In this document: piece after piece, positions 35,968-55,298 of the stretch | Layout: each line of letters opens with the position of its first letter | How positions within the stretch are numbered: the first letter of the stretch is position 1 | NCBI GenBank assembly: GCA_044892505.1 | Contig: CM097882.1 | Span: 209,870,001-209,934,000, forward strand | Direction of reading: 5' to 3' | Origin: Schmidtea nova | Taxonomy: Eukaryota | Length of the DNA stretch: 64,000 nt | Position numbers and translations under genes: made by a program | The notes under the pieces: generated by a model | The model's input: only the letters and a program-made list of their open reading frames with translations | The model's database searches: none | Told to the model about the DNA's origin: nothing

Positions 35968-35968
35968 A
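35963..35968 (+). terminator. Candidate poly(A) signal in the LTR (copy near 62124)
   Basis: AATAAA overlapping the ORF2 stop, followed by a GT-rich tract (TTGTCTTGTTTGTTTGTGG). Confidence 0.5.
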
Positions 35969-36359
35969 TGTATTGTAAACGAATGATTTGACTTGTCTTG
36001 TTTGTTTGTGGAATGTTTGAGGATTGAATGTAACTAAAACCCGGATTCATTTAAACTGCAGATATCTAAAAAGTAAATTACCCTATGACAAAAGGAAAGA
36101 GCATAAGTGGGACCGAAAGAAATCCACAAACACCTTCTATCGGTAGTGGTGGACCCGTGAATAAACAAGGGAATAGTAGCCGCAAGGTTGCTCACCTGCC
36201 TTGTCATTTCACAACGTTGACACAGCACCAACATGATGAGTAGTTAGGGATACATCATGGGTGTCAGCGGGGGAATGTTTTTATGTTGGCGAGATCACCC
36301 TAACATATAAAATCACAATGATCTCAGTTGTCAATCTAACCAACACACCAGCATAAATT

Positions 36360-36377
36360 TGGGGGCTCAGCCGGGAT
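36360..36377 (+). promoter_or_regulatory. Primer-binding site of element B (tRNA-Pro type)
   Basis: TGGGGGCTCAGCCGGGAT, 6 nt after the LTR end. Confidence 0.88.
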
Positions 36378-36914
36378 TAAATCGATCTTTGTGGGAAAAA
36401 GTGAATTCGATATCTGCGGACAGTTTTAGAGCGCCTGAACCGGGATGAAATTGAATTTAGCGAGGAAAAATAAAGTAAATAATAACGGTGGGTCTGAGGG
36501 TCCTGAAGCAAAAATGAATCGGGTTGAAAAATAATAAATAAAAGTATGAGTGTAAAATAATGAGATTGATGAACGGGATAAAAGTATGCATGAAAATGAA
36601 AGTATGAATGATAATGGAATGGAAGTATGAGGATGAATGAAGCAGGATGAATAGTATGTGGAGTAACAGTATGAAAAGTGATGAAAAGTATGCATGACGT
36701 AAAGTAAAAGTATGCTGAAAAGTGTGTATGAAAATGGTATGAGTGTGAGCAACTAACAATGATCATGTCGGGGCGACATTCAAGAACACGGGGGGATACG
36801 CAAGTAGTGACGCGAAACAGAACAACAAAAACCGAACAGTAGGGCTACCATAGAATAGGAATAATAAATAATAAATAAAAATCGATAAGAAATTAATGGT
36901 AATTCATTCAGGGG

Positions 36915-37373
36915 ATGGAGAACAAAATGAAAGAAATGCAAACGTTTTTCGAAACAAACAACGAGACAGTGGAGACAATAACGAGAAAGTTAAGACGACT
37001 CGAAGTAGGAGGATATCACGAGCCGACAAACAACACAGAAAGAGCCGAAATGATAATGAGCATAAGCGAGAATAAGAACACAGTGGATACAGCAACACGA
37101 TATCAGTGGTATAGAGAGCGATTAAACAACCCTGAGATGAATATCGAGTGTCACAGGCTAGAACAACAGTTAACAACAAAACACGACGAGTGGACGAGAA
37201 TAACAACAGAACATACGAGACAATATTTGACGTGTTATATCTGTGAAATGAACAAAATACAGATAATGTTGTTGCCATGTGGGCATTTTCGATTCTGTAA
37301 TGAATGTGAAATAAATGAACGATGTCCTATGTGCAACCTTCCCGTATCTGAGAAAGTAACAGTGTACTTGTAA
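36915..37373 (+). CDS. 152-aa protein with C-terminal IAP/MDM2-type C3HC4 RING; putative E3 ligase, no BIR seen
   Basis: CYICEMNKIQIMLLPCGHFRFCNECEINERCPMCNLPVSEKVTVYL*. Confidence 0.85.
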   Translation: MENKMKEMQTFFETNNETVETITRKLRRLEVGGYHEPTNNTERAEMIMSISENKNTVDTATRYQWYRERLNNPEMNIECHRLEQQLTTKHDEWTRITTEHTRQYLTCYICEMNKIQIMLLPCGHFRFCNECEINERCPMCNLPVSEKVTVYL

Positions 37374-38084
37374 TAGAAATAAAGTTTTGAACAAGTGCAG
37401 TTGTTGTTGAAATTATGAGGGTTTAAAAATGATTTGGTAAAAATGACCTAAGTAATTATGAGCTACTTACGAGTAGTCCGTTAAGCACCTATTGGGGGGA
37501 ACCAACTGATCAACTCACCCGAGATGTGTAGAAAGGGATCCAATCGCGGATATTGGAAAGCTCTTGTGATGTGACTGATCACCACATCGTGCATCAGTGG
37601 ACCAATGCGATCTTTTTATATATTTTGGTTGGGGTGAAAGGTAGGGACAACTTAATGAGGTGTAGGCGCGCGCAGAAAAAAACTATAAAAATAGGAGGAT
37701 AAACTGATCAGTAAAGAGAGAGAGAAAGCAATGAAATGAGTAAGATGAATAGCGAAACGTGGTATATGATGAAAGGCACGTAATCAGCTCGCATAAGGTA
37801 AAATCAAGTAGAAAGGTTGACGAATCGATAATAGAATAAAGGGGTATAACAGATGAACCGAGTAAATGGTAAACTCGAGGTTAAAGGAAATCCTTGAAAG
37901 AAAGGAAATGATAAAAGGGGTCCTGGAGAGAAAGGATTTGCCCATAGTTCTTGAAAGATAGAACTTAACAAAACGCGACAATAGATTCTCCGAAGAAGCA
38001 TAAGTGACCAATGAGAGGAACATCTCGAAGCAACACATGCAACCACTGAGAGATGATATTTCGAGTTTTCGTTCGTGAGCATAG

Positions 38085-38633
38085 GTCTCATAGTGAGCAT
38101 AGGTCTCGTCATAAAAATAACATCCTAGTGAGCATAGGTCTCGTCATAAAACACAACACCATAGTGAGCATAGTTCTCGTCCGTAAATATAAATCTCGTA
38201 GTGAGCAGAGTTCTCATTAATAAACACAAGACCAGCGAACATAGTCCTCATCAGTGAGCGTAGTTCTCATTAATAAACATAGTCATCGTAGTGAGCGTAG
38301 TTCTCATCAGGAAACATAATTCCTGTAGTCACCATCAGTGAGCATAGTTCTCATCGGGGAACATAGTCCCCGGAGCAAAGAGTTTCCATCAGTAAGCAAA
38401 ACCCTCATAACAACCATGTTTTGCTAGTGAGCATAGTTCTCCTCAGTGAGCATAGTTCTCGTCAGTGAGCATAGTTCTCGTCATTGAGCATAGTTCTCGT
38501 CATTGAGCATAGTTCTCGTCATTGAGCATAGTTCTCGTTAGTGAGCATAGTTCTCGTCATTGAGCATAGTTCTCGTCATTGAGCATAGTTCTCGTTAGTG
38601 AGCATAGTTCTCAGCTATGAGCATAGTTCTCGT
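38085..38633 (+). repeat. Array of the GAGCATAGTTCTC core: 11 tandem 19-bp copies (38427-38633) plus dispersed upstream copies
   Basis: (G/T)TGAGCATAGTTCTCGTCA, read directly. Confidence 0.95.
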
Positions 38634-38959
38634 TTGAAATAAGATAGTGAGTAAAAAGCCCACGAGAAAGACGACGAAGTGAGGCAGATGAGGACTAAAT
38701 TACGTATAAAACTATCCGGATAGTGAAGATCAACAAGCGATAATGGAGATGAATAAATGATAATGAGGATAAATGATGAATAGTGAAAATGAATAGCGAA
38801 CAATGAGGAATAAGGGTTGAAAGAAACCGAATTAATAATGAGAGAGTTGAAGGTGCGCACCTGGGTATGGATAAACGCGAGTAAAGCTGATTATGTGGCC
38901 TAATGACGTCAAAGTATGCATACAGAGGAGTAGTGAAGTAAAGTGAGTAAGTGAAGGGT

Positions 38960-39422
38960 GCTGAGTGGAAAACCCAGCAGACCATGAGATTCGATGGGAA
39001 TAAAATGAAACCGGTTTGTTAAGACAGGTAAAGTGGTAAAGACGCTAGCTGGAAAACCCAGCAGGTCAATGATAACGATCAGGAAAGATCGAGAGAATAA
39101 AAGTGAGTAATAATAAAGTGGTGAAATTGAGGACGCTGACTGGAAAACCCAGCAGGTCAAAAGTGATGATCATCAGAGTAAAGAGCAGTTAAAAGTCGAC
39201 AGTAAAGAGATAAAGGGTGAATAATAAGAGCGCTGACTGGAAAACCCAGCAGGTTAATGAAACGACAGTCGTGGTCGAGAATAACGAGATAACAGTAAAA
39301 GGTGAGATTAAAAGCGCTGACTGGAAAACCCAGCAGGCTAATGAGATAATGAGTGAAATTGAGAGAAACAGAGTTCGAGATAAAAGGTGAGATTAAAGGC
39401 GCTGACTGGACAGCCCAGCAGG
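38960..39422 (+). repeat. Six spaced copies of GCTGACTGGAAAACCCAGCAGG (period 84-97 bp)
   Basis: Copies start near 38960, 39044, 39135, 39232, 39316 and 39401. Confidence 0.9.
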
Positions 39423-40298
39423 CCAACGAGAGATGTCAGTGGAATCAAAGGTGAGTAGAGATGAGAATTGAAATGAAGTAGTAAACGTAGTATGAATAGG
39501 AAATAAAGCGAATAGCCGAGAAACAGAGTAGTCGACAGATAAGGGGAAATTTGAACTCAGAGCCAGAGAAGCCTGAGAAAAGTAAAGGGGATAATAAGAG
39601 CGCTGAGCGACAAAGTAATTGGGGAACTGGGGAAAAGTAATTGGTGTATTTGATAAAGAATAGATAATTGATGCGACTGCATAGATAATTTAAATAGACT
39701 TAAAATCAAGGGAAATGGGAAAAATGGGGATCTTCATGAATTATGACTACACCCGTGAGAGGGACGAGAAACACGATAACGGGGACGTATCGTGTAAGTG
39801 ATTATTTGTTTTAAGGAAACAAATCAATCAAGCAATTCAAAGCAATCTAGCAGTCAGAGCAATCAAAGGAAACAAATCAAAGAAGAAGCAAAGCAAAAGC
39901 GGAGTAGAAAATCAGTTGAGAATATAAGAAGTTGAGGAATAGACAAAATTGAGGGACGAGAAACAAGATCAGGTATAATACCAATCTTAACGGAAGCAGA
40001 AAGAAAAGCAGCAAAAAGGACAAGAACAGGTAACAAGCCTAAGCAACAAAAGAACAAACAAGTAGAGATCAGCGATAATTCGAGTAATAAAGAGAACCAA
40101 GAAGAAACCCCAGAAGATCTAGAAGTACAAAACGAAGTAGAGACGATAGACAGTGAACTAGTCAGGGAAAACAGAACAAGAAGCGAATCAAGAGATAACG
40201 AAACAGAGAGTAGTGAAGAAGAAGAGTCGAATTCAGAAACAAGTGGTGAACTAGAAGCAAAGAAAACTAGTACAGTATTCCAAGACAGTGGAATCGGG

Positions 40299-41170
40299 AT
40301 GAGTGAACACAGAGAGGATCTGAGAGAAAAATTCAAGGGCGAACCATTCAATGGAGACGCCAGTAGATTGGACACGTTTCTAAAGGAATTTGGCATATTC
40401 GTGGATATATGCGGATGGAGTGCAGAAACGTTGGCAAATCGAATCCCGCTATACTTGAAAGATAGCGCATTGGATCTGTATATTGAAAAGAGATCTGGAA
40501 GTAGTCCACCCAGAACGTGGGAAGCAATCAAGGAGTTCTTCCAACAGACGTTTGGGATAAATAAAGTATTAAACGAAGCGTTCGATGAGTTTTCTGCAAG
40601 AAAACAAAGGAGAAACGAGTCAAATGCGGTGTACGCAAGCGAATTAAGAAAGTTGGCGAAACTGGCATTCAACAGAGGAAGCCCAGTAGATGAAGAATTG
40701 ATGACAGCGTTATTCGTACGAGGTCTCAGGAGACCTGACATCAGAGCACAAGTGGGATGCAAAGGATGTAAAACAGTAGATGAAGCGTTGGAAGCAGCCA
40801 ACCTATTCGAATTGCATATGGCAATGAATGACATGAGAATTACGGCGGTAATGGGAAAAATGACAGAAGATGAAGAACAAGGAAAAAGAAACATGAATCA
40901 AAGTATTCCCCATTCGCAGAGATTGTTCAAAGAACCGCCAGCGAGGAAAAATAATGGATATATCACAGTAAACCCGAATGGAGGAAACAGTTACAATGAC
41001 AGGCAGAATAGGCAATGTCAGACGTGTGGAAAAAACGGACATTGGCAACAAGATTGTTTTCAGAATGTAGCCTGCAAACTGTGTGGACAAAAAGGTCACT
41101 CAGAAAATCGATGTTATGGGAAAACGTGTTACACATGTGGAAAAACCGGACACATGTCAAGAGACTGTAA
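40299..41170 (+). other. gag: Gag: capsid-like domain and three CCHC zinc knuckles
   Basis: FNGDASRLDTFLKEF...W..IKEFF...RKQRRNES..YASEL; CQTCGKNGHWQQDC, CKLCGQKGHSENRC, CYTCGKTGHMSRDC. Confidence 0.92.
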
Positions 41171-44100
41171 TCAACAGAGAAGTTGGTCAAACAGTGGAAA
41201 TAGACCGAATTACGGGAATCGACCAAGCTATGGGAATCAGGGTCAGCAACGGAACAACCCAAACAGCAGTGCAAATGAAGTCAGTATGAAAGAAGCCAAG
41301 TTGAGACAGGAGGTATCCAGATTACACGAGATAATCGAAAGCATGGCAAAAGGAAGCCAACAAGCTGCTCAACCAAAGATAAACATGATCCAGTTAATAG
41401 AAGCTGAGGCTGAAAGAGAAAATAGAGAAAGCCAACAGAAACATAATCAAGAATGGGCTAGAATACGACGAGAAGAAGAACAAGTCAGACAACAACGACT
41501 ACAACAGTTAAAAAAGGGAAATCCAAGGATCAACATGATGCGAGCAAGGATGGAAAAGAAGCAGCAGGATGAGTCAGACGAGTTAGAAGTTAAAGAGAAA
41601 AGAAACGAAGAGCAGAAACAAGAAGAAGTGAATCAGGAAGTAGAAGTCGCAGAGCAGAATCAAAAAGCTGAAGAAGTAGAAAAAGAAACGAATCAAGAAG
41701 CGGAAGTAAGAATCAAACAAAGAGGAATGTTGGTGATCATGCCGAATGATCACGTATGGCGATTCAAATATGATGTAAAAGAAGAAGTAGGAAGACTGTT
41801 CAATAAAGTAAATGAGATGATTCCGGGAGTAACGAAACTACCCAGAGAAGCATTCCTACAAACAGAGGATTTACCGGAAGTGAAGTTAAAGATGACTGAT
41901 ATATGGGAAGATATGGGAGTAACGGAGACAAAAATAAACGTGATGATCATCAGAGAGGTGGAACCGGAGAAAATCCCACCACCAGTGAAACATCAAACTC
42001 GGATCAGTCGAATATTCAAAGGAAAAATAAGACGAAGACGGTTGGAAGAAATAGATGAGTTGGAGAAAAGAATGGGAAAAGCTGAAGTAACAGGAAACGA
42101 GAATGAACTAATACAAGAAGTTAGCAAAAACGAAGCGAGACCAACCGCACATATTGGGATGCTGAGACACCCAAGACAAGAGTTGTCAGATGAAGAAGAC
42201 AACAGCGAAGTTAGCAGTCTGGCAGGAGACATGCTAAAGGAACCGGAAAACGAGGACAAAAAGATGGAAGTAGTTGAGACGATGGAAACAGTGTCAGTAA
42301 CGGAAGACGAAATTCAGAAGCTGATGGATAACGCGTTGGAAGTAATCCATAACGAGGAGTTTATCGACAAGAAACGATACCGAAAGTTTATACGAGCAGT
42401 ATGGCAAATGAAGTACAAAGAGTGGTTACAAGAAAGAGAAGTGAGAGTAATACAAGAGTTCATAGAGAAGTTATTGAAAGAACCACTCAACGAATACGTA
42501 ATACAAATATGGATAAACGAGTGTTCACCGAGAATCTGGATAAGGAACCCAATGACAGACGGAATTTACCGATGGGTTGAGGACAGATTGGGAAGCTCGT
42601 ACAAAGACAAATTCATATACTCAGAAAACGGATTGGTGAGAAAAGGAACGCATATGATAGACACGGGCATCTGGCCAGGAGAAATAACAACGTTATCAAT
42701 ACGCAACACCAAAAAGGAAGAGAACTTACAAGGAATCGTCAAAGAAGCGAATACGTGTTATGAGATGAGAATAAAACCTCAGTTGCTAGAGGCAAAGGAA
42801 AGAATCTTGGCGGAGAATTTGAATACGATAATAGAACAGATCATCCAACAAATCAAGAAACATCGAAAGGAATTGACGAAAAGCGAGTATGAGAATTTGA
42901 AACAGTGTATCGAGAACATACGAGATACGAGTCAAACGAGACATTCAAATTTCAAGACGGACAAGCTAATTGCAAAGATGGGAAAAGAAATGTTTAAACG
43001 AGGTGAGGTATCAGATCTGAAGATTACCGTGAGATTACCAAACGAAGAGACAAAACAAATTGAGGTAATACCAGATAGTAAAGTGGGAGAAATAGTAGAT
43101 GTCATCAATGAGACGATATTACAACGAGAACGAGAAGACGAATTCGAGGATTACATTGCGATAAAATACAAAGAACACCTACTAAACGAACGTGACGAAA
43201 GACGAGCGTATAAAATCGGCATATGGGATAATTATCAGACAATACATGTCATCAGAATGGATGATGTGCAAAGAGCAACACCAAAAGATGAGGAAAGGAG
43301 AAAGAAACGACAAGAGGACGTTATGCGTAAGCTGAGGCAGATAGTAGAAATCTATCGGAACTGGCAGATGAAGCCAGAATTGGAGACAATATTGGGAGAA
43401 TTGGATCTTAACAGACGACGAGTGACGCCAGTAGGGAAACAATGGGATAGTAAAGAGAAATGTTGGAAAGTGAAAAGAGGCGTGTATGAAGAAGATCCGG
43501 AAGTGGAAGACAGATACGAACCGAATACGAAACGGATATGTATGGTAACAAGGAGGTTATTACCAACGGACTTAGACGGACCAGAAACTGCAGTAATATG
43601 GGCAGAATTGGAGAAACAGAAAACGAGTGAATTGATCGAGCTGTTGAGAGGAAATACTCGGGGGAAAAGACAAACAATAAAAGGCTTAGCACAATTCATA
43701 ATCTCAAATGGAGAAGACATAACGAACTTGAGAAAAGTAGCTAAAGCGATAGCAGAATACAAGAGAGTTAATGAGTGGTGTCCAGAGCAACTAGACGATG
43801 TAATAAAAAAGTGGAGAAACAGAGAATTCGCGGAGGAAATGCCACAGAAAATACATTTGAGGATAATGTATCCGAATCAAAGAAAAGAAGAGTTTTGGGT
43901 GATGCTAACAGAGAAAGTGAAAAGTATTAAAGAGAAACTGATGTATGAACTACCATTCCACCTGCAACATCAAGGACGATCGTTGGATAATAGTTTGGAA
44001 ATCTGGCTGACACCAGTACAATTGGACCTAATGAACACGCTAACAGTGGCACAAATAGTGGGTCAACCACTGAAGTTTAAAGAGGAAAAGAAACCGAAAG

Positions 44101-47100
44101 GAAGCATGAGTACACCAAGTCCGATGAAGTCAACAATGACCCCAGGAACAAGTTCGGGACAAGCAAGGACAACACCAATAAAAACGAGAGAGAGAACACC
44201 GCCAGAAGCGTATGATGTGGATGAGATACTAACCGACAGTGACGAAGCAATAGAAGAATTAACGAAACTGACTCAAAAACCAACGGCGAACATTTTTGAC
44301 AAAATAATAGAGATGCCAATAACGTCACCAGCAGAAATCGACGATCAAGGAGTGGAACAAGAGGTAGTCATAGAAATGGTAAACGATTCGGAAGACGAGC
44401 AAGAACAACCACAATTTACTCAGGAAATGGAAAGATGGTTGGAACAACGAGCAAACGAAGGAAGAGATGTTACCGAAGAAACCGGAAGAGCAACGAGATT
44501 TGTAGAAACCGGAACTGGAATGGAAAAACGACCAAGAGGAAGACCAAAGATAGATCCAACAACAGCAATCCCAAAGACAAGGGAAGAAAGGAGACAAGAG
44601 CAATGGGAGATTTGCTTAAAGAAATTAGACAAAATCGCAGAAATCAGAGGAAAAGAGGAGAATCAAGTCTGCCAAGGAGAGGAATGGCTCACCAAAACGA
44701 TAATGGATGTGTTAGCAATAATTGACCCAGAATTAAAGAATTTGTGGCGGATAAACGAACCTAGTACAAAGGCAAAGATGCTACACAATGCAATAGCACC
44801 GATTATGCCAGAATTGATAAAAGCGAAAACAAAATCAAATCATCTAGATTGGCAAGGAACCACGAGGTTAATAAAAAGGCTACTTAGCGGAGCAGAGACG
44901 GACAGCAAATATCTGGTAGCAATCTCGTATACGATATACAATCTGTTAACGCTAAGCCGAGGAAGTCCGAAGTCAAGTCCGATGGGAAGACATATCAAGA
45001 ATACGGCGATGATTATCGAGAAGGAAATTGAACCATATATCCTCAGAAAAGGAGGATGGGAAAAGTTCATAAAAGAGAACCAGACAAAAGAGGGTTCAAA
45101 CGTGATGAGAAAGAAACTTGAAGGAGTATTGAGAGAAATGGAGAATAGACAAACAATGCAAGGAAACGGAAGATCGACGTTGAATTTAAACTCGATAATC
45201 ATGATGATGTTAGTATGGTTGTTAAGCACAGAGGGTGTAACAACATTTGAAGTATTTGATTGCGATCAAATGAAGTTAGGAGAAAAGTACTCATTGAGAG
45301 GTACGGAGCAATGCAAAGATGCAACTCCAGTAGAGTTAAAAGAGATTAAAAAAGAACAATGGTACCACGTATATCAAGAGGCAGAACTAATAAAGACAAT
45401 GGTGAATGAATGCAAAGTACAAAAGACGAGATTCGCATTCTATTGTGGTAGAGGACATTATTCAGCAATTGTCATGCCAGGAACCGAAAGAGAACCAATC
45501 GTGTTGCAAGGAGAAGACTGCGAAGCATTGTTTAAACATGGAGAAGTAACAACGAGAGATAAAATCAAGATAAGAGGAAAGCCAGGAATGATGTTGCAGC
45601 AGACGTATTATGTAGCAGGACGGATTACGGGAGGAGAAGGATATTGTCAAGGAGAAACCTACCCAATATTCGGGGTACCTGCAACCAACTTAGTAGTGAT
45701 GGATACGTACATAGTCGAACTGAAAAGCTACGAGGCATTCTTCGAACCAACAACAGGAGAAATGAAAACGTTATCCATGTGTAAAATTGACAGAAGCATG
45801 TGTCAAACGGGAATGTCAACATTGGTGTATAAACCAAAAGTGAACGAATGTCAATTACAACTGCTACAAGGAGCAAAGTTCGACGAAATACAAGGAAAAA
45901 CGTTTCAAGAAGAGGACGATGATGACAAGGCTAGAGCAAAGCATCTCAAAGAAGCTTTAGAGAATAAAAGACAATTGAAACCAGATCATAGAGAAAAACG
46001 AATAGAGATGAGAACAACACCAACAGTGTTGATAACCACAAATCAGGATGTGGGCATGAGATTCATAAAAGGGAAAGCAACCCTTAAGTGCAGTACAACA
46101 GTATACGAAACGAATTATCCAGGAATATACGTGTCGAAACAAGAAGTGCCGAATGCGAAACCCAAGATCGACACAATGGATATCAAGCTACACTTGTATG
46201 TGAATAATAAAATGGATTTCTTATTCCATAGAGGACAAGCCTCATTGCAAAAAGTGTACTATGATCTGATAAACAACGATTGTATACTGAACCGGGAAAT
46301 ATTGAAGACAAAGTTGGCCGTAGCGATTACGAATCCAGATAGCGCGATGCCGTTATTACCACTGAGAGAAGGACATTTCGGAAGAGTGGTTGGAGAGGCA
46401 ATGTATGTATACATTTGCGAAAAGACACACGCATCGTTAGCAGCAACAACGCAGTTGAAGCCTGGACAATGTACAAACGAACTAGAAATCGATTATAAAG
46501 GAAAAGTACGATATGTTCAACCGGTGACGAGAATCATCAATCCACCAGGGTTTGAACCAAATCCATTCAACTGTAGTAATGCGTACGGACCGCTTTATCA
46601 GAAGCCAGATGGCAAATGGGTAATGTTCCCAGGAAGAACCGAAGTATTAGCACCAAGAGAATTTGAGCTAATGCAGTTGTCAAAAGATAGACAGTTCAGC
46701 GACGTAGATGTCTCAAACAACGGAATCTATAGCCCAAAAGATTTAGAAGCAGCCAGACAGAATATACTATTTCCGGCAAGAAGAGAAGCATTACTGTCAA
46801 ATATCGTAACGATAACGGGAGGAACGGATTATCGAGAAGGACCGAATTACGAACTGTTGTTGTCACCGGCACATTTCAAGAAAGCCACAGAAAACATGAT
46901 GAAGGCAATGTGGGGAAGATTCCTGATATTCGGACAAATGATGGCTGGAATACTGGGAGTGATATTGATAATACAAATCGTCAGAGTGATAATAACGCAA
47001 ATGTTAGCGTGCTTCGATATCTACAAGAGAGAAAAGAAAGTGAATTGGAAAATGGTAGTAGGATTTTTACCATTCCTTGCGAAAACGATGGTGTTGCACG

Positions 47101-50100
47101 GACACTCAAAAGACATACATCGAAAAAAGAGGTTATTGAAGATACTTGCAAAAATGAAAGGAACAAACGAAGATGTCGGAAGGAAATTCAAAAAGATAAT
47201 GCAAGACGAGCAAGCAAGGCGACAACTAAAGAAAGAAAGGAAAGGATTATGGGAAAGAGTGAGAGGATATCGAACGCAGGATGACTCAAGCAATGATGAC
47301 GACGATGACGATCAAGGAGGACAAGCGAATATAAACCAGATTCCACAGTATAACGAAAAGAGTGCAGTTGAGAATTGGAGATACAGTGCTCCACCCCAGT
47401 CAATGTATAACGAACCGATATACAAAGCGAAGCCGAATATGATGCAGATGATGCCGATGACAAGTATATACCCGATAATTCCAGAAGGATGTAAAGTAAA
47501 ACGATGCAGAAGTGTAGACCCGTTGGAAGACACGCACACGATAGCGGTTATGTCCACAAATATGGGACCGATTTTAACAACAACCGTAGAAATAAACGGA
47601 AGAGAAATTGAAGCTATGATCGATACAGGCGCGAATATTTCGGCAATCGACATCAATTATATACCAGAGAAAAACCAAGGAGAAATAGAGAAGACGAATG
47701 TTCATGTAATCGCGTGCAGTCAAGAGACAGTAGAAGTAGCCGGAAGATGGTTTGTAAAAATTAAGCATCGAGGTGCAGAAATCAACACGTACATCGCTGT
47801 AATACCATCGCTGAGTGTACCATGTATTATTGGAACTGACCTGATGCCAGACCTGTTCAAGGAAATCGTAATTGATCTAGGAGCAATGAAGCTAAAAGAT
47901 AGAACAGGAAAAATCTGCAGAATGAAAGTTAAAGTGGCAAGTACAGAACAAATAGTAGTGCCAGCGAGACACGAAATGATGTGCTATGTCAAGATCGATT
48001 CAACAATAAAGGGAGATATGATATTCGAACCAAGTAAGAAGTTCGAAGCGAAGAAAGAATTACCAATGGCCAGAGAATTGGTTACGATAAACCAAGAAGG
48101 TGAGATACTGATTAATCTGGTGAACTTCGACGAGGAGGACAAGATAATATACGAGAATGAGAATTTGGGTAAATTGACACCCATGTCCGAAATCGAGATA
48201 CCAGACAAGAACGTGAAAAGCAAAAGCGAATTACCATGGAAAATCGACAGTGTGTTGTTAGACGAACGACAAAAAGAACAGTTACAGAAACTGTTGATGG
48301 AATATCAAGACATATTCGCAGCATCAGATCTGGATTTAGGAACATGTGACGTAACATTACATACGATACCGTTGACAGACGAAACGCCAATCGCATTAAG
48401 ACCATATAAATTGGCAGAAGCTCAAAAAGCAGTGGCAGAAGAAGAGGTACAAAAGATGTTAGATGCAGAGGTCATCGAACCTAGTTGCTCACCCTGGCAA
48501 TTCCCAGTGGTGATGGTGAAAAAGAAGGATGGAACTCAGAGATTCTATATCGATTACAGACGATTGAACGCAGTTACGAAAAGAGATACGTACCCACTGC
48601 CAGATATAAACGAAATGTTGTTGACGTTACAAGGAGCAGCTTATTTCACGTCACTGGATTTAAAAAGTGGATATTGGCAGATCAAAATGAAAGACGAGGA
48701 TAAAGAGAAGACAGCATTTACAATCGGACGAGATCTGTACCAATTCAAGAAAATGCCGTTTGGGTTAACAAACGCGCCAGCATCATTCCAGAGATGCATG
48801 AATTTCGTAACACATGGCATAAAACAATGCATGGTGTATATTGACGATCTATTGATCTACTCCGCAACATTTGAAGATCACTTGCAAGACATCAGAAATG
48901 TGTTCGTGAAATTGAGACAGTGGAAACTGAAATTAAAGCCGTCAAAGTGCGATTGGGCAAAAGAGAAAGTGACATTCTTAGGTCACATTGTATCAGCAAA
49001 AGGAAAAGAACCAGATCCAAGGAATATCGAAAAAGTTAAAGAATGTCCACCACCAAAGACAGTGACTCAAATACAAGAATTTTTGGGATTGTGTGGATAT
49101 TATCGAAAATTTATCAAGGACTATGCAGGACTCTCAAAACCAATGCAAGAATTGGTAAGACAAGATGTATCGTTCGTATGGGGAGGAGAACAACAAGCAG
49201 CATTTGAAACACTACGGGACAAGCTGATTACAGCACCAATATTGGTCCATCCAGATTTTAAGAAGCCATTTTTGTTGGCAACAGATGCAAGTGGATACGC
49301 AGCAGGAGCAGTACTAGGCCAATTTGATGAGGAAGGCAAGGAAAGAGTAATTGGATATTACAGTCGAACATTCAGAAAGCATGAAAAGAATTACTCAGTC
49401 ACGGAAAGAGAAGCCTATGCGATAATATTGGCAATCAAGCATTTCAAGTACCTATTGTGGGGTCATGAAATATATATCACGACGGATCATCAACCATTGG
49501 TATGGTTAGGTCAACATAAAGAATCATCAAGTAGATTGATGCGTTGGGCGATGCAGTTGCAGGAATACTCGCCATTCATAAAGTTTAAAGCAGGAAAAGC
49601 AAATGCGAACGCGGATTGCATGTCAAGGTTTACATTCCCAGAATTGGTGAACCTAAATGCTCTAAAAATATGTGCATTAATAGCGGAGGATTTGGATTTC
49701 AGCGAATTAAGGAAAGATCAACTCGAAGATGAGGAGTTGGGATTGATCAGCAAGTATTTGAAAGAAAGGGAAATAGAAATATTCGGCAAAAACCAAGTGT
49801 TGCGCGAACATATGCAAAAATACCAACATAGATACGTGATGGAAAAAGGATGGTTATTGATACAAGATGGAGAACGAAGATTGATGTGCTTACCTGCGAA
49901 TAGACGAAAGGAAATCATGACTCAATATCATGACGGAAAATTAGGCGGACATATGTCAGCAAAAAAGACAATCGGGAGATTGAGACAAAAGTATTTTTGG
50001 CCAACCATGGAAGATGAAGTGAAAGAATGGATAAAGAACTGCTTAACCTGTGCGACAAGAAAGAACGTCGGAACGAAGTGGAAAACACCACTAAAACCAA

Positions 50101-53100
50101 TGCCAATACCTGCAGAACCTATGGCAACGATAGCAATGGATGTAGTTGGACCATTGCCAGAAAGTTTAAAAGGAAATCAATATATATTAATAGTCACGGA
50201 CTATCTAACAAAGTTCCCAGAAGCATTCGCAATACCGGATCAAAAAGCGAAAACAGTCGCGAGAATATTGGTGGAAGAAATATGCTGCAGATATGGAACA
50301 CCAAAGAAAATCCTAACGGATCAAGGAACGAATTTCATGAGTGAAATATTGGACGAAGTTACGAATTACTTCAGAATTGCGAAATTACGAACATCCCCAT
50401 ACCATCCACAAACGAACGGTCAAACAGAAAGATTCAATGGAACATTGATACGCATGTTGTCAAATTATGTCAGTAAACATCAAACTGACTGGGATGAGTA
50501 TATAAACCTGTGTTTAATGGCATATAGAATGTCAATACATGCGGCAACAAAGCTAAGTCCATTTCAACTGATGTACGGAAGAGATTGCAACTTACCGATC
50601 GATTTAGAATACCAACCACCATTATCACAGTACATGGAGGTTGACGATTACGTTACAAAGTTCAAAGAAAGAATGCAAGAAATCTGGAAAACAGCGGAAC
50701 TGAACATCAAGTTCTATCAAGAGAGTTACAAGGATCTGCATGATCAGAAAAAGAATGTGAAAGCACATGATTTAAAAGTTGGAGATTGGGTGATAATCGA
50801 GACACCAGAGATAATACCCGGTACGGTCAAGAAACTCCAACGACCAGGCAAAGGGCCATATGAAATAACAACAGTAAACGAAAACAATGTGCGGGTACGA
50901 TTGGTGAACAATCCATTGGTAAGACCAATATACGTGAATGCATGTCGATGCAGGAAAATCCCAAAGACAGCAACTCTATCACCAGAAAAACGGGTAATTA
51001 CAAGATCACAGACGGCGAGAATCAGTATGTTACGAGTACAACAAAAGCCGCAAACAAGTCTAGAAGACAACCGAAGAGAAGCAATAGATAGCAAAGAACT
51101 GGCAAAGAGGACCAGAGAAATTATACCAGAATGGAAATGGTGGTTCGATTTCAATATATTGACAGAAGTTCGAAAGAATGTAATGGAGTATTCGAAGGAT
51201 AGAACAGCACATCCAATAACAAGAACGCTGCTAGAGGAAATCCCTCAAACATTGAACCTACAAGACAAAGACGGTAACACAGCGTTGCACAATGCAATCA
51301 AGCACAGTGGGAACGAAAAAGTGAAAGAGATCGTAGAGATGATACTCGAAGGTGGAGGAGAAATTGACAAAGTGAATTGGGAAGGAATCACTCCACTTAT
51401 GATGATGACAATTCACGGAAGAAACGATGAGATAGTCAAGCTATTCGGAAACACCAGATCAAATTGGATGACAAAGGATAAAGAAGGACGAACATTCTTA
51501 AATCATGCAATTGATAGAGCGAATCACCGAATACTAAAGTATATCACGGAAAACGCCACGTGGGAAATCGATGAACTAACTAGAGGATCGATCATGAAAC
51601 AAGCAATCGGAGTAAGAAACAGTAAAACCTGGAGAATACTGCTAAAGTGGAAACGACCAGAAGGAGATTCGTGGGTCATAGATTGTAATGAAGTGTTCAC
51701 AAGAGGAGAAAATGCGTTACTGAAACATCTACTAGAGGTAACATACGATCCAAAAACACTTGCAGTGTTAATAGCGAGAGATACGTTACGGGTTAGCGAA
51801 AACCCAAGAGAATTCAAGTTGGAAGACAGAAAGAAAGAACTATTCGGATTAATCAGGAAATGGTGTGATAAGCAATGGAATGCGCATATGAGCTTCGAAC
51901 ATTTTTATGACATTCAAAAGCAGCACAAAGAAATAAACAAGAGATATAAAGAGCTGATAGAAGCATTGAAATATGGACATTTCTTCAGACAAGCAGTGTA
52001 CCAAGACCAACGGAGGAAACAGATGCAAACACGAATAAGAAGCAAAGCCGTGTTGTTCAATGCAAAAGCCGATGATCAAGAGAGATTAGACGCAATCGTA
52101 GCAAAAGCACAGGAAAAACTATCGGAATTCAAGGAGAATAAAAACTCGTTGGAAATACTAGGAGCAATTACAGAGAAAGTGCACAGATACGCACAAGGAG
52201 ATTATAACGAAAGTGACATAGAAACGATCAAGAATCAAATGCCAGTGGCATTCCTTTTATCAAAGGATGGGAGATTACCGATACACTGGGCATTACGTCG
52301 AAAGAAAGAAAACGAAGTGCTGGAAATAACGAAAGCAATGATAAAGTGCGAAGCAGATATGAATATGGTTGATGATAACGGAGACACAATAATGATAATC
52401 GCAGCAAGAAAGAAGACGAAATTGAAAGTGCTACACGAGTTATACGAAGCAGGAGCCAAAATCGAAGGGAAAAATGGAAAGAAAAATTCCATCATAGATA
52501 TCGCAATACAGTGGAACAACTTCGAGATGATCAAGTTCATAAAGTCCATCAAGAGACAAGAGGACATAGAATACCTGGCAAATAACGTAAAGAAGTTCAG
52601 TCTGACAGTAATGATACACGACATAGAGAAAACGAGAGCATTACTAACATGGGTGAATCCGATCACCAAAGAACCAGCGCTCAAGATCAATGACCATATG
52701 GAACAGAATCAGAATTGGTGTATCAGAAGCGCGTTATTAAGACACAAAAAGCCAGAGATAGTAGAAGAATTCTTAAAGAGAAGAGATTTGAAGTTCACGA
52801 ACAATCCAAAGGAACCCGAACGAACGGGAAGATGGAAAGACTTGTTCAGAAAATATGTGAATGAATGGGCAAATGCCAAAGAAACGATCAAACAAAGTAG
52901 ACTAAAAGACATAGAACCATCCAAAGATATGGAAATACGGGAATTCGAGTCTAGCACACTCACAGTTCAAGCGTATGAAAGATTGATTGAAGAAATCAAT
53001 GTCGAGGACGACATTTTCAAAGGACCAGGGGGTGGTTACAGAGATTTCGACGACAAAAGCAACAACGAAGAGAACAACGAAGACAATGACAACAAAAGAA

Positions 53101-55175
53101 CGGAGGATAATGAAAAAGAAAGACAAGAAGAACCGAAGCCAACGAGAAACGACAAGAAAGGAGAAGCAGAAGAACGAGAAAACAGTGGAACAAAAGACGA
53201 ACATGCGAACTATGGAAAACGAACAGGAAGTCTACTTTTGAGACCAGAAATGTTGTGTATTGCGATATTGATAACAATCATCGGACAAGGAGAAGCCAAG
53301 AAACAATACGTCACGCTAGAGATAATCAGAGGAAATGAAGTATATGAAAGAATATGCTGGAAAGAAAACCTGAAGAAAAACGATACGCTGAAGTGTATAT
53401 TGTCAGATCTGAAGCGAGACGTCATCCAAATCAAAGGATTGGAGAAAGAAAAATCATACATAATATGCGCAATAAAGCAGAGAGGAGAACCAAAAGCACC
53501 TCAAGTAACTGCATGTCAATTATATAAAGCAACAGAAGCGCTGAAAATACAGAAATGGATTGGAAAAAGAAGCGAAGAGACAACGAGAAGAACAGAAGTG
53601 GAACCAGAGAAAGGGAAGAATCAAACCGAAACAGAAGAAGGAATCGGAAACCAAACAGAGAAAGAAAGAATAACCAAAAATCCAGCGGGAAAATTAACAT
53701 TCCAACCAGAATTGATATGTGTAGCATTAATATTAATCCTCATTAAGAGAATCATGGAGGACATAGATATCAGCGTGATGACGTTAGTAAATATCCAAGA
53801 CCAACGAACAACGAACGGAAGATGTTGGGGACGAAACAATGAAGTAATTGGAATCAGCGAAACAAGAGAAAGCCGAGAAGTAGAGACAAATGAAGAAATC
53901 GAAATAACCAAAATACACACAGATAGAAAATGTGAACTATGTCTCATGGAAAAAGCAGCAAACGGAAACAGACCAGGAACAAGCGAGTGTAAAGTGTTCC
54001 AAGCAAAGGAGATAATTGAGTTCCCAAAAAGAAGGAAACAAGATCAAGAAACGATTACAAATAAAGTAGTAACTGTGGAGATAAAAAACATTGGTCGGAG
54101 AACAATTGGGATGTGTTGGAGAAAATACATCGGAGTAACGACCAGTCACGTACTACCGCAATGCAGAACGAGAGAACGAGGAATCCCGTTTCAATTAAAT
54201 GGATTCGAAGTCGGACAAGCATATGAAATTTGCGTAATCCGAAGAATAAGAGAAATAATACAAAGAAGCCTGGAATGTAAACTATACAAGACGCCAGAGC
54301 AAATTAACGGAACAAGAACGATCGAAATGGGAGGAAGTCGACAGAGGAAAAGAAAGTCAAGAAAAACCACGACAACCAACAGTCAAGGAGTTCAACAGGC
54401 AACAATAGAAAAGACGACAATAGAAAACGAACCGGAATCAACAACGTTGATAATATGGAAGATCCATAAAAAGGTCCTAGAAATCTGTTGGACGTTGATG
54501 CCAAACAGTATGGGAAAGTCCCCACGAAACTGTCAAAAGACATCAAATGACAAAAGGGAAACAATCGAGGTAGAAATGAGAAAGTTGAAAACAAACGCAG
54601 AATACGAAGTGTGTGCAATCGAAGAAGTAGATGCACAAGGAAACCCACAAGAAAGGTGCGAAACCTATTACACGCCAAGGAACATAACGATAAAGGGGAG
54701 AACCCGCAAGTTAGAATTCCGAGAATTGAGTCAGAAGAGAAAACAAAACGAGAAGGAGGAGACAATACCAAGTCGACAAGAAAAATGGGAACCAGAGAAA
54801 GTGATCGAAGAAGTCAGACGGAGACAACAACAATACGAACAATGGGAAGCAGAATGGAAAGGTCAATATGGCGTGATGATAAACCAAAGTGAGACTCCAA
54901 GAAGGAGCATTGGGAAAACAATAATGGGATTAATCAGCATGGGAGTATTCATAGCGTGTATTCCACTGATAACGATCATGATAGTATGTTGGAGATATGG
55001 CATGAGAAATAAGACCATAGCAGTAAAATGGCCGGACGTAAAAGTCACGAATTACAACATAAAACTACCAAAAGAAGTACGAGAAGAGCTGAAAAGACGA
55101 TCAAAACACGAAGAAATGTGGGTACAGATCGAGGACGAGGAACTGTACGAAGGAAAACCAGTGATAGTTGTATAG
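40299..55175 (+). CDS. 4,958-aa Gag-(UBL/Bcl-2-like)-Env-PR-RT-RH-IN-Ank-FN3-like-TM polyprotein
   Basis: Single uninterrupted ORF carrying all canonical retroelement motifs plus extra domains. Confidence 0.97.
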   Translation: MSEHREDLREKFKGEPFNGDASRLDTFLKEFGIFVDICGWSAETLANRIPLYLKDSALDLYIEKRSGSSPPRTWEAIKEFFQQTFGINKVLNEAFDEFSARKQRRNESNAVYASELRKLAKLAFNRGSPVDEELMTALFVRGLRRPDIRAQVGCKGCKTVDEALEAANLFELHMAMNDMRITAVMGKMTEDEEQGKRNMNQSIPHSQRLFKEPPARKNNGYITVNPNGGNSYNDRQNRQCQTCGKNGHWQQDCFQNVACKLCGQKGHSENRCYGKTCYTCGKTGHMSRDCNQQRSWSNSGNRPNYGNRPSYGNQGQQRNNPNSSANEVSMKEAKLRQEVSRLHEIIESMAKGSQQAAQPKINMIQLIEAEAERENRESQQKHNQEWARIRREEEQVRQQRLQQLKKGNPRINMMRARMEKKQQDESDELEVKEKRNEEQKQEEVNQEVEVAEQNQKAEEVEKETNQEAEVRIKQRGMLVIMPNDHVWRFKYDVKEEVGRLFNKVNEMIPGVTKLPREAFLQTEDLPEVKLKMTDIWEDMGVTETKINVMIIREVEPEKIPPPVKHQTRISRIFKGKIRRRRLEEIDELEKRMGKAEVTGNENELIQEVSKNEARPTAHIGMLRHPRQELSDEEDNSEVSSLAGDMLKEPENEDKKMEVVETMETVSVTEDEIQKLMDNALEVIHNEEFIDKKRYRKFIRAVWQMKYKEWLQEREVRVIQEFIEKLLKEPLNEYVIQIWINECSPRIWIRNPMTDGIYRWVEDRLGSSYKDKFIYSENGLVRKGTHMIDTGIWPGEITTLSIRNTKKEENLQGIVKEANTCYEMRIKPQLLEAKERILAENLNTIIEQIIQQIKKHRKELTKSEYENLKQCIENIRDTSQTRHSNFKTDKLIAKMGKEMFKRGEVSDLKITVRLPNEETKQIEVIPDSKVGEIVDVINETILQREREDEFEDYIAIKYKEHLLNERDERRAYKIGIWDNYQTIHVIRMDDVQRATPKDEERRKKRQEDVMRKLRQIVEIYRNWQMKPELETILGELDLNRRRVTPVGKQWDSKEKCWKVKRGVYEEDPEVEDRYEPNTKRICMVTRRLLPTDLDGPETAVIWAELEKQKTSELIELLRGNTRGKRQTIKGLAQFIISNGEDITNLRKVAKAIAEYKRVNEWCPEQLDDVIKKWRNREFAEEMPQKIHLRIMYPNQRKEEFWVMLTEKVKSIKEKLMYELPFHLQHQGRSLDNSLEIWLTPVQLDLMNTLTVAQIVGQPLKFKEEKKPKGSMSTPSPMKSTMTPGTSSGQARTTPIKTRERTPPEAYDVDEILTDSDEAIEELTKLTQKPTANIFDKIIEMPITSPAEIDDQGVEQEVVIEMVNDSEDEQEQPQFTQEMERWLEQRANEGRDVTEETGRATRFVETGTGMEKRPRGRPKIDPTTAIPKTREERRQEQWEICLKKLDKIAEIRGKEENQVCQGEEWLTKTIMDVLAIIDPELKNLWRINEPSTKAKMLHNAIAPIMPELIKAKTKSNHLDWQGTTRLIKRLLSGAETDSKYLVAISYTIYNLLTLSRGSPKSSPMGRHIKNTAMIIEKEIEPYILRKGGWEKFIKENQTKEGSNVMRKKLEGVLREMENRQTMQGNGRSTLNLNSIIMMMLVWLLSTEGVTTFEVFDCDQMKLGEKYSLRGTEQCKDATPVELKEIKKEQWYHVYQEAELIKTMVNECKVQKTRFAFYCGRGHYSAIVMPGTEREPIVLQGEDCEALFKHGEVTTRDKIKIRGKPGMMLQQTYYVAGRITGGEGYCQGETYPIFGVPATNLVVMDTYIVELKSYEAFFEPTTGEMKTLSMCKIDRSMCQTGMSTLVYKPKVNECQLQLLQGAKFDEIQGKTFQEEDDDDKARAKHLKEALENKRQLKPDHREKRIEMRTTPTVLITTNQDVGMRFIKGKATLKCSTTVYETNYPGIYVSKQEVPNAKPKIDTMDIKLHLYVNNKMDFLFHRGQASLQKVYYDLINNDCILNREILKTKLAVAITNPDSAMPLLPLREGHFGRVVGEAMYVYICEKTHASLAATTQLKPGQCTNELEIDYKGKVRYVQPVTRIINPPGFEPNPFNCSNAYGPLYQKPDGKWVMFPGRTEVLAPREFELMQLSKDRQFSDVDVSNNGIYSPKDLEAARQNILFPARREALLSNIVTITGGTDYREGPNYELLLSPAHFKKATENMMKAMWGRFLIFGQMMAGILGVILIIQIVRVIITQMLACFDIYKREKKVNWKMVVGFLPFLAKTMVLHGHSKDIHRKKRLLKILAKMKGTNEDVGRKFKKIMQDEQARRQLKKERKGLWERVRGYRTQDDSSNDDDDDDQGGQANINQIPQYNEKSAVENWRYSAPPQSMYNEPIYKAKPNMMQMMPMTSIYPIIPEGCKVKRCRSVDPLEDTHTIAVMSTNMGPILTTTVEINGREIEAMIDTGANISAIDINYIPEKNQGEIEKTNVHVIACSQETVEVAGRWFVKIKHRGAEINTYIAVIPSLSVPCIIGTDLMPDLFKEIVIDLGAMKLKDRTGKICRMKVKVASTEQIVVPARHEMMCYVKIDSTIKGDMIFEPSKKFEAKKELPMARELVTINQEGEILINLVNFDEEDKIIYENENLGKLTPMSEIEIPDKNVKSKSELPWKIDSVLLDERQKEQLQKLLMEYQDIFAASDLDLGTCDVTLHTIPLTDETPIALRPYKLAEAQKAVAEEEVQKMLDAEVIEPSCSPWQFPVVMVKKKDGTQRFYIDYRRLNAVTKRDTYPLPDINEMLLTLQGAAYFTSLDLKSGYWQIKMKDEDKEKTAFTIGRDLYQFKKMPFGLTNAPASFQRCMNFVTHGIKQCMVYIDDLLIYSATFEDHLQDIRNVFVKLRQWKLKLKPSKCDWAKEKVTFLGHIVSAKGKEPDPRNIEKVKECPPPKTVTQIQEFLGLCGYYRKFIKDYAGLSKPMQELVRQDVSFVWGGEQQAAFETLRDKLITAPILVHPDFKKPFLLATDASGYAAGAVLGQFDEEGKERVIGYYSRTFRKHEKNYSVTEREAYAIILAIKHFKYLLWGHEIYITTDHQPLVWLGQHKESSSRLMRWAMQLQEYSPFIKFKAGKANANADCMSRFTFPELVNLNALKICALIAEDLDFSELRKDQLEDEELGLISKYLKEREIEIFGKNQVLREHMQKYQHRYVMEKGWLLIQDGERRLMCLPANRRKEIMTQYHDGKLGGHMSAKKTIGRLRQKYFWPTMEDEVKEWIKNCLTCATRKNVGTKWKTPLKPMPIPAEPMATIAMDVVGPLPESLKGNQYILIVTDYLTKFPEAFAIPDQKAKTVARILVEEICCRYGTPKKILTDQGTNFMSEILDEVTNYFRIAKLRTSPYHPQTNGQTERFNGTLIRMLSNYVSKHQTDWDEYINLCLMAYRMSIHAATKLSPFQLMYGRDCNLPIDLEYQPPLSQYMEVDDYVTKFKERMQEIWKTAELNIKFYQESYKDLHDQKKNVKAHDLKVGDWVIIETPEIIPGTVKKLQRPGKGPYEITTVNENNVRVRLVNNPLVRPIYVNACRCRKIPKTATLSPEKRVITRSQTARISMLRVQQKPQTSLEDNRREAIDSKELAKRTREIIPEWKWWFDFNILTEVRKNVMEYSKDRTAHPITRTLLEEIPQTLNLQDKDGNTALHNAIKHSGNEKVKEIVEMILEGGGEIDKVNWEGITPLMMMTIHGRNDEIVKLFGNTRSNWMTKDKEGRTFLNHAIDRANHRILKYITENATWEIDELTRGSIMKQAIGVRNSKTWRILLKWKRPEGDSWVIDCNEVFTRGENALLKHLLEVTYDPKTLAVLIARDTLRVSENPREFKLEDRKKELFGLIRKWCDKQWNAHMSFEHFYDIQKQHKEINKRYKELIEALKYGHFFRQAVYQDQRRKQMQTRIRSKAVLFNAKADDQERLDAIVAKAQEKLSEFKENKNSLEILGAITEKVHRYAQGDYNESDIETIKNQMPVAFLLSKDGRLPIHWALRRKKENEVLEITKAMIKCEADMNMVDDNGDTIMIIAARKKTKLKVLHELYEAGAKIEGKNGKKNSIIDIAIQWNNFEMIKFIKSIKRQEDIEYLANNVKKFSLTVMIHDIEKTRALLTWVNPITKEPALKINDHMEQNQNWCIRSALLRHKKPEIVEEFLKRRDLKFTNNPKEPERTGRWKDLFRKYVNEWANAKETIKQSRLKDIEPSKDMEIREFESSTLTVQAYERLIEEINVEDDIFKGPGGGYRDFDDKSNNEENNEDNDNKRTEDNEKERQEEPKPTRNDKKGEAEERENSGTKDEHANYGKRTGSLLLRPEMLCIAILITIIGQGEAKKQYVTLEIIRGNEVYERICWKENLKKNDTLKCILSDLKRDVIQIKGLEKEKSYIICAIKQRGEPKAPQVTACQLYKATEALKIQKWIGKRSEETTRRTEVEPEKGKNQTETEEGIGNQTEKERITKNPAGKLTFQPELICVALILILIKRIMEDIDISVMTLVNIQDQRTTNGRCWGRNNEVIGISETRESREVETNEEIEITKIHTDRKCELCLMEKAANGNRPGTSECKVFQAKEIIEFPKRRKQDQETITNKVVTVEIKNIGRRTIGMCWRKYIGVTTSHVLPQCRTRERGIPFQLNGFEVGQAYEICVIRRIREIIQRSLECKLYKTPEQINGTRTIEMGGSRQRKRKSRKTTTTNSQGVQQATIEKTTIENEPESTTLIIWKIHKKVLEICWTLMPNSMGKSPRNCQKTSNDKRETIEVEMRKLKTNAEYEVCAIEEVDAQGNPQERCETYYTPRNITIKGRTRKLEFRELSQKRKQNEKEETIPSRQEKWEPEKVIEEVRRRQQQYEQWEAEWKGQYGVMINQSETPRRSIGKTIMGLISMGVFIACIPLITIMIVCWRYGMRNKTIAVKWPDVKVTNYNIKLPKEVREELKRRSKHEEMWVQIEDEELYEGKPVIVV
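41720..44055 (+). other. Region with up to four ubiquitin-like (beta-grasp) domains
   Basis: For example LKITVRLPNEETKQIEVIPDSKVGEIVDVI..IAIKYKEHLL..IGIWDNYQTIHVI and IHLRIMYPNQRKEEFWV..VKSIKEKL..FHLQHQGRSLDN; pattern match by eye. Confidence 0.55.
44590..45090 (+). other. Bcl-2-like domain
   Basis: BH1-like LDWQGTTRLI and BH2-like IEPYILRKGGWEKF, conserved in element A. Confidence 0.6.
45180..47100 (+). other. env: Env-like glycoprotein (chuvirus/herpes gB-type) with signal peptide, furin-like REKR site (45990-46001) and TM
   Basis: FEVFDC..YSL..C, FYCG..HYS, GE.MYVYIC, C.NEL...Y.G..RYVQPVTRII, GIYSPKDLEAARQNILFPARR match the chuvirus glycoprotein pattern as I recall it. Confidence 0.8.
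47553..47910 (+). other. Retropepsin-type aspartic protease
   Basis: VEINGREIEAMIDTGANISAI ... IIGTDL. Confidence 0.95.
47920..48185 (+). other. Degenerate dUTPase-fold-like spacer common in animal Gypsy pol
   Basis: IVVPARHEMMC..MAR.LV..I.INLVNF....IIYENENLG; catalytic motifs not evident. Confidence 0.4.
48309..49630 (+). other. pol: Reverse transcriptase and RNase H
   Basis: SPWQFPVVMVKKKDG, LDLKSGYWQI, MPFGLTNAPASFQ, YIDD, FLGH; LATDASGY, EREAYA, TDHQPL. Confidence 0.98.
49880..50960 (+). other. Integrase (HHCC, DDE core, GPY/F)
   Basis: YHDGKLGGH..CLTC; MDVVGP, TDQGTNF, GQTERFN; KKLQRPGKGPYEI. Confidence 0.97.
51240..52760 (+). other. Two ankyrin-repeat clusters fused after integrase
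   Basis: DKDGNTALHNAI, NWEGITPLMM, DKEGRTFLNHAI; KDGRLPIHWAL, DDNGDTIMIIAA, LYEAGAKI. Confidence 0.85.
53230..55000 (+). other. Hydrophobic signal-like segments, four FN3-like Cys modules and a C-terminal TM helix
   Basis: Repeated CW....C....L....Y.(I/V)C....C..Y.T; TM IMGLISMGVFIACIPLITIMIVCW (about 54918-54993). Confidence 0.55.
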
Positions 55176-55298
55176 AGGGTGGAATATGAGTGTAAATAAT
55201 AGTGTAAAAACCAATGCATAACCGTATACGTATGGGTATAAATATTATAAAACATAAAAACAGAAAAAAGAGAATGATGTATATAATCTAGAAAAACG

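Follow-up and report, generated by a model that had tools for sequence, protein, structure and literature searches.

We find a Bcl-2-type domain in the polyprotein of a giant LTR element, placed ahead of the envelope glycoprotein (Env), and its sequence context makes it most likely that this domain borrows Env's signal peptide as its tether to the endoplasmic reticulum (ER). The case for a borrowed tether is built on the hydrophobic helix between the two, because this helix behaves as Env's own signal: the signal peptidase rule holds at 13/13 junctions, and the same signal is found in a relative, L118, that lacks a Bcl-2 match. For the whole chain, in which a captured Bcl-2 domain is held on the ER by the Env signal and has a pro-survival role, we would put the probability at roughly 45%. 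The domain and its position before env are already in print for the Burro elements. What is new here is the fold-level support, a corrected register for the motifs, evidence for one old capture, and a testable model of processing and topology.

The window, i.e., the whole 64-kb stretch of DNA analyzed, contains a pair of related giant LTR elements that run in opposite directions. The plus-strand copy is a whole Burro-type giant gypsy element (family A; 33044..62514, +) of 29,471 bp, with a 4-bp target-site duplication (CTGG) at its flanks and 3.3-kb LTRs (33044-36353 and 59205-62514) that are 99.76% identical to each other. A single ORF of 5,079 codons (39936..55175, +) encodes Gag zinc knuckles, cargo, the Bcl-2-like domain, the signal, Env, a transmembrane segment, protease, reverse transcriptase (RT), RNase H, integrase, ankyrin repeats, and further hydrophobic segments. 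On its 3′ side lies an accessory TRAF-like ORF with domain matches to RING, TRAF zinc finger, and MATH (55724..57154, +). In the minus-strand element (family B), the ORF is split into several frames; its Bcl-2-like domain, linker, and signal occupy 10280..10927 (−), with 71% amino-acid identity to the plus copy over the domain. Family A has at least 139 copies (among 150 scored matches from 1,803 candidates, 139 are 78-100% identical to the plus copy and 11 are 68-70% identical), and family B has at least 150, with 150/150 scored matches from 1,298 candidates 92-100% identical to the minus copy.

This architecture is that of the planarian Burro/GYPSM1 giant gypsy-like LTR elements, for which the Burro section of PMC6431247 describes a length of ∼30 kb, one ∼5,000-codon ORF, Gag, cargo, a BCL2-like motif, in-frame env, the order PR-RT-RH-IN, ankyrin repeats, and TRAF/MATH domains. 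The plus-strand element has the corresponding size, LTRs, and ORF1 length, its env lies in frame between the BCL2-like motif and the protease, the PR-RT-RH-IN order is the same, and it carries ankyrin and MATH/TRAF cargo. The likeness is one of described architecture, Burro-1 to -4 having been compared by description only, and from the architecture alone the host would be planarian-like. Unlike in Burro, the TRAF-like ORF of the window sits downstream of the long ORF, and the long ORF has no BIR match.

Several other features of these elements were seen in passing. The genome is home to at least seven Burro-like families, among which long open ORFs are numerous, with ORF lengths of about 3,000 codons in families C, D, and E, about 3,350-3,400 in G and H, about 5,085 in A, and about 5,650-5,690 in B. 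Each LTR of the plus element contains two open frames of more than 200 codons (34523-35215 and 35341-35967, with copies at 60684-61376 and 61502-62128), and the 5′ internal regions of both elements contain tandem repeats (38387-38671 and 16443-16837, with units of 19 and 32 bp). A second accessory ORF of 393 codons (57223-58404, +) has weak, coiled-coil-type Pfam matches only. On the 3′ side of the ankyrin repeats, positions 53226-55000 (+) hold two more signal-like hydrophobic segments, Cys-containing repeats that look beta-rich, and a final transmembrane segment; this region has no Pfam assignment, and its segments suggest further luminal cargo domains.

The first-pass annotation had read a Bcl-2-like helical domain from motifs quoted for both elements. 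These motifs are indeed present on both strands: on the plus copy, DWQGTT starts at 44847, SIIMMMLVWLL at 45192, and the Env start FEVFDC at 45246; on the minus copy, DWQGTT is at 10678, BH2 at 10498, the hydrophobic segment (SIIMMMLIWMI) at 10333, and the Env start at 10279. The structural comparisons that it proposed bear out the fold. The core (44676..45086, +; model residues 25-161) was delimited by structural match and profile, using a domain model built from 19 element-only sequences whose confidence is low (pLDDT 53, pTM 0.49). In a search of all structural representatives, the best match of this model is Bcl-xL (Z 12.1, rmsd 3.0, 132 residues aligned), a score to be read with the knowledge that Z below about 13 can arise among helical bundles. 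The top 36 rows of that search are all Bcl-2-fold proteins, and the first unrelated row has a Z of 5.8. Every row listed by Foldseek against the PDB also belongs to the Bcl-2 family, although the best E value is 5.8e-3 and none reaches 0.001 or lower, and viral Bcl-2s rank first in a viral structure library. The low-confidence model shows the bundle of the Bcl-2 superfamily, with helices arranged around a central hydrophobic helix 5. An extra helix ahead of the core (44598..44648, +) is modeled with a pLDDT of about 30 and falls outside the structural match (model residues 22-163).

By sequence, the element profile matches Bcl-xL from helix 4 to BH2 (E 5.9e-8), and 16 of the 19 alignment members match the Pfam Bcl-2 model at E ≤ 1, the best at 2.2e-8. 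The window domain alone has no match in Pfam, PDB sequences, or the Atlas, a profile restricted to families A and B has no significant PDB match, and a single-sequence model has no Bcl-2 match near the top, the first Bcl-2 protein appearing at rank 50. It was the Pfam Bcl-2 model that initially brought families C and D to light, a mode of selection that biases profile A1. Families G and H were reached by a Gag-led rather than a Bcl-2 search, and they also carry the domain. We consider the assignment secure because of the sequence link between the window-type families (A/B) and the others (C-F; E 4e-5), an unchanged position within the polyprotein, and the fact that G and H were found independently. 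Altogether, relatives and modeled fold make the domain almost certainly of Bcl-2 type.

Relatives were reached by several routes. Searching the genome with the Pfam Bcl-2 model brought up host genes together with element families C and D, some copies scoring above the curated cut-off, and a family D query recovered family E and the deletion derivative F. The matches that led to G and H lie in Gag and adjoining cargo, outside the Bcl-2 region, while three metagenome loci were found via an Env alignment. A library-wide profile search gave 12 matches, of which 5 have Gag or Env plus the domain, 3 are fragments placed with these in the tree, and 4 are cellular-looking Bcl-2. Word-indexed homolog searches, with longer proteins and with a family D query, found none, nor were relatives found in the viral contig library. 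In a tree of 75 columns, with rows partly retrieved with the same profile and with G, H, and L117 left out, a 98/100 branch splits 14 element rows from 14 cellular rows, and the element branch is long. Such a tree fits one old capture of the domain and names no donor; capture once, from a host gene, is likely. Between A and B, dN/dS is about 0.06 over the domain, a rough value because dS is near saturation, and 0.11-0.22 in the upstream cargo.

The same searches turned up other loci. Host Bcl-2-family exons occur at L039-L047, L050, L058, L060, L064, and L067, several of them divergent or decayed; by PDB search, one is most like Bcl-xL, one is Bok-like, and one is Bak-like. Many of these exons stop at the BH2 Trp, which would suit an intron that they share, and no BH3 exon was found within 10 kb upstream of the Bak-like genes. 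Old deletion derivatives of family D type (L105, L106, L109, and L110; for example, L106:931-1716, −) lack Env to integrase, such that the Bcl-2 domain and signal nearly abut the last transmembrane segment; in another, L115, Gag remnants and the downstream accessory ORF are still present. The metagenome contig L117:2-10282 carries a Burro-like ORF; between its Env and RT, inspection by eye shows three D[TS]G aspartic-protease-like stretches together with additional hydrophobic segments. An unrelated 863-codon ORF adjoins a family E copy (L099:2-2590); by eye, it resembles a protein-primed family B DNA polymerase of the Polinton type.

The BH motifs show where the element domain departs from the canonical pattern. 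DWQG, which the first-pass annotation took for the NWGR of BH1, lies at the start of helix 4 in alignment and model (44847..44858, +). This is the wrong register, 17 residues upstream of the NWGR-equivalent position, which reads TDSK at the start of helix 5 (44898..44909, +): the basic residue is kept, the Trp and Gly are lost, and the window thus lacks a canonical BH1 NWGR. Across 17 lineages, counted here and below as one row each and related by descent, this position has the Trp in 0/17, the Gly in 1/17, and Arg or Lys in 14/17. BH2 fared better. The motif IEPYILRKGGWEKF (45027..45068, +; alignment and profile) contains PYILRKGGWEKF, which follows the W...GGW..F pattern with Tyr as the first aromatic, and GGW is kept in 16/17 lineages and in 30/30 fetched copies of the window's family, so that the BH2-like reading, which loss of GGW in relatives would have undermined, stands. 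The earlier spacing of about 35 residues to SIIMMMLVWLL needs correction, as 45 residues separate the BH2 Trp from the hydrophobic segment. In addition, helix 5 has an element-specific conserved Tyr in 15/17 lineages.

Three further motif candidates were discarded. A seemingly ancestral NWD in family D traces to a single copy, recorded as both L049 and L069, whose TGG corresponds to CGG, CGT, or CAG in the other copies fetched. The helix ahead of the core was considered as a BH3 mimic; its LxxIA is common to A-E but is not conserved in G or H, and the Gly-Asp is missing. The BH1 basic residue at first appeared universal (14/14), which became 14/17 once G, H, and L117 were added.

Cellular pro-survival proteins (Bcl-xL, Bfl-1/A1, and Mcl-1) share with the element domain the predicted fold, the BH2 GGW, a basic residue at the BH1 Arg position, and a C-terminal hydrophobic segment. 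In contrast, the element domain is 10-16% identical to them, has TDSK for NWGR and no clear BH3 in helix 2, and is part of a polyprotein, with a longer-spaced tail that ends in a predicted signal peptidase site. From its sequence, it is not a canonical pro-survival member. According to the part of PMC9027176 that deals with these residues, the BH1 Gly and Arg are important for Bcl-2 family interactions, with the Arg forming a pair with the Asp of BH3; ORFV125, whose BH1 reads SPGR, still binds the Puma BH3, about 250-fold more weakly. Because Arg or Lys is kept in most element lineages and ORFV125 still binds Puma, the element groove may, by analogy, still bind BH3 helices. In the same genome, host Bok- and Bak-like exons are also without the BH1 Gly.

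Between BH2 and Env lie a variable linker (45069..45191, +), with 45% identity between A and B, a dN/dS of about 0.3, and a length that differs among lineages, and the h- and c-regions of the predicted internal signal peptide of Env (45192..45245, +), with a predicted cut between 45245 and 45246. Env itself (45246..46994, +) is a Monjiviricetes-type fusion glycoprotein (PF24664, E 8e-69) with a C-terminal transmembrane segment at 46938-46994 by hydropathy. By our definition, the cut site lies five residues N-terminal to the first conserved cysteine of Env, a choice made after viewing families A-E. As a rule check, the (−3,−1) rule is satisfied at 13/13 junctions, 8 of them added after the site was defined, against a background of 0.09 per site; the remaining 4 of the 17 lineages have no junction, and in L116, which is among the 13, the linker is interrupted by a stop. 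In relatives, matches to the Pfam Env model start near the predicted cut, and similar internal signals occur 3′ of integrase in several other families. The first-pass claim that the helix serves as an Env signal peptide is therefore supported at the level of prediction.

Is the same helix also the tail of the Bcl-2 domain, as first proposed? L118 (L118:440-8521), a compact metagenome relative of 2,693 codons with internal signals, has Gag, a matching signal that satisfies the (−3,−1) rule, in-frame Env, and Pol, and no Bcl-2 match with Pfam or the element profile. Because the signal is present there without Bcl-2, the helix is best read as Env's own signal rather than as the domain's own C-terminal tail, a reading that depends on this one Bcl-2-less element, whose position in an RT tree of 8 elements is not rooted. 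L118 also has no ankyrin match, and it has a second hydrophobic stretch just ahead of its Env signal. That the helix began as the tail anchor of the captured gene and was recruited as the Env signal afterward seems quite improbable. The helix does follow BH2 as tail anchors do, and its hydrophobicity is not separable from that of host Bcl-2 tails, even though it sits inside an ORF with a signal-peptide pattern. Its spacing overlaps that of cellular proteins in two lineages (27-28 residues to the h-region, compared with 15-30 in cellular tails). However, the median spacing is 41 residues, Gly occurs in the best 11-residue core in 1/13 element rows versus 4/5 cellular tails, and L118 has its in-frame Env and matching signal without the domain.

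The Env cassette may have a history of its own. Env at 45260-47000 (+) is about 85-98% identical (mostly 93-95%) to its counterpart at about 8500-10270 (−), compared with 60-83% in the flanks, and dS between A and B is 0.34 in Env and 1-2.8 upstream. The high Env identity and low Env dS relative to the flanks suggest that the cassette was exchanged between A and B, with a 5′ border near the predicted signal cleavage site.

These features lead to a model of processing and topology. Gag and cargo would be made in the cytosol, Env would be translocated at the internal signal, and, past the Env transmembrane segment, Pol would again be cytosolic. Signal peptidase very probably cuts ahead of Env, and this cut would leave the helix on the upstream piece. 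The last candidate site for the element protease on the 5′ side of the Bcl-2 domain, RICMV at residue 1200 (43533..43547, +), comes from a motif scan in which no further candidate motif appears between residues 1204 and 1770, the window linker included; by pattern, the same candidate motif occurs ahead of the protease, between RNase H and integrase, and 3′ of integrase. Cleavage at this site, which we think somewhat favored, would free a piece of ∼570 residues ending in the Bcl-2 domain and signal remnant. Persistence of the remnant as a membrane anchor has slightly better than even odds; a persisting remnant would likely keep the Bcl-2 domain at the ER, facing the cytosol, and the predicted piece would be expected there rather than on mitochondria. 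At about 11-12 residues, the h-region in the window is short and may make an unstable anchor. The earlier proposal of a tail-anchored viral Bcl-2 thus holds in part: dual use of the helix is plausible because a tether after cleavage follows from the topology, but the product would be the end of a ∼570-residue piece, not a free protein of ∼170 residues.

There is precedent for both fates of such a remnant. As summarized in the relevant portion of PMC8310223, internal signals of pestivirus and hepacivirus polyproteins start envelope translocation and stay as signal or anchor on the C-terminus of the upstream product, as we propose here; the core signals of pestiviruses and HCV are cut again by signal peptide peptidase. 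By analogy, a second cut by this enzyme could release the Bcl-2 piece. The upstream product in those viruses is a core or a glycoprotein, whereas here it would be a captured host-regulator domain.

It is possible, though we lean against it, that dual use does not last: the remnant would be recut or degraded, the Bcl-2 piece would be soluble or nuclear, and its position would reflect a cargo insertion slot between Gag and Env. This bears on the anchor alone and is compatible with either function of the domain. The motif KRPRGRPK directly 5′ of the domain (44526..44549, +), which we take to be AT-hook-like and whose RGRP also occurs in families B, C, P0003, and P0004, lies within the same predicted fragment and suits a nuclear piece. 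L118 with its signal but no Bcl-2, the similar signals 3′ of integrase, a linker that differs in length and sequence, and the precedent of signal peptide peptidase (PMC8310223, in the same portion) all fit such a slot. Set against this, Bcl-2 is the last recognizable domain ahead of the signal in 13/13 lineages that have a junction, at a distance of 43-77 residues from the cut, two lineages have tail-like spacing, and the window linker has no candidate protease site through which the anchor could be shed. A tethered fragment might also serve mainly in assembly, as a matrix-like piece keeping the Gag-side precursor at the Env-bearing membrane. The topology would place uncleaved Gag-cargo on Env's membrane, and Flaviviridae core proteins precede an internal signal (PMC8310223, same portion). 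Yet L118 manages without the domain, candidate protease sites lie between Gag and the Bcl-2 fragment, and no test result points to a structural role, so that this reading is the most improbable of those considered.

With the borrowed ER tether as our preferred reading, what would the domain do there? Tethered at the ER, it may dampen host cell death; in the part of PMC1560389 concerned, Bcl-xL restricted to the ER still protects against several death stimuli. That it acts in a pro-survival manner through a noncanonical BH3 groove is a tentative proposal, at a little under even odds. The fold could instead have been kept and BH3 binding lost, leaving a scaffold against innate-immune, stress, or autophagy signaling that works alongside the TRAF-like ORF and ankyrin repeats. 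Poxvirus A46, A52, and B14 have such a role in signaling and share the fold at Z 6-7. NWGR is degenerate in 17/17 lineages, the element branch is long and separate with its own conserved helix 5 Tyr (15/17), and TRAF and ankyrin modules reside in the same element. However, cellular pro-survival proteins and BH3-binding viral Bcl-2s head the matches in both structure and sequence, 14/17 lineages retain the basic residue of BH1, and host Bok-/Bak-like genes likewise lack the BH1 Gly; we consider a scaffold role rather unlikely.

The first-pass annotation had suggested a comparison with anti-apoptotic cargo of Burro, and the comparison holds: the Burro section of PMC6431247, which cites Jurka 2007 and Grohme et al. 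2018, already reports a BCL2-like motif, env homology in frame between BCL2 and protease, and a suggested link to apoptosis. That section makes no mention of a signal peptide, topology, BH1 degeneration, or a single origin. As to activity, de-repression of BURRO1 is described for animals under smedwi-2 RNAi (PMC8532177). A mostly title-level search of literature on Burro, retrotransposon Bcl-2, and chuvirus-type glycoproteins found neither the signal nor the topology nor the BH1 state described; Grohme et al. 2018 and the figure in PMC6431247 may bear on the point.

Viral Bcl-2 proteins of DNA viruses (BHRF1, KsBcl-2, A179L, M11L, and ORFV125, and the signaling-type A46, A52, and B14) share the fold and divergent BH motifs, such as the SPGR of ORFV125 (PMC9027176, in the part cited above). 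Those named in our viral search are stand-alone DNA-virus genes, whereas here the domain belongs to a reverse-transcribing element and its product would arise by polyprotein cleavage. The most far-reaching reading, that Burro-like elements are enveloped reverse-transcribing viruses with a functional viral Bcl-2, captured once, remodeled at BH1, and tethered to the ER by the cleaved Env signal, is on balance unlikely when all its parts are taken together. All Bcl-2 mimics that the viral structure search listed come from DNA viruses, and a conserved domain in a high-copy retroelement would carry this strategy over to elements that replicate by reverse transcription, in a host with high regenerative capacity. 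If the proposed chain is true, each Env molecule made would also bring one anti-death domain to the membrane at which Env folds.
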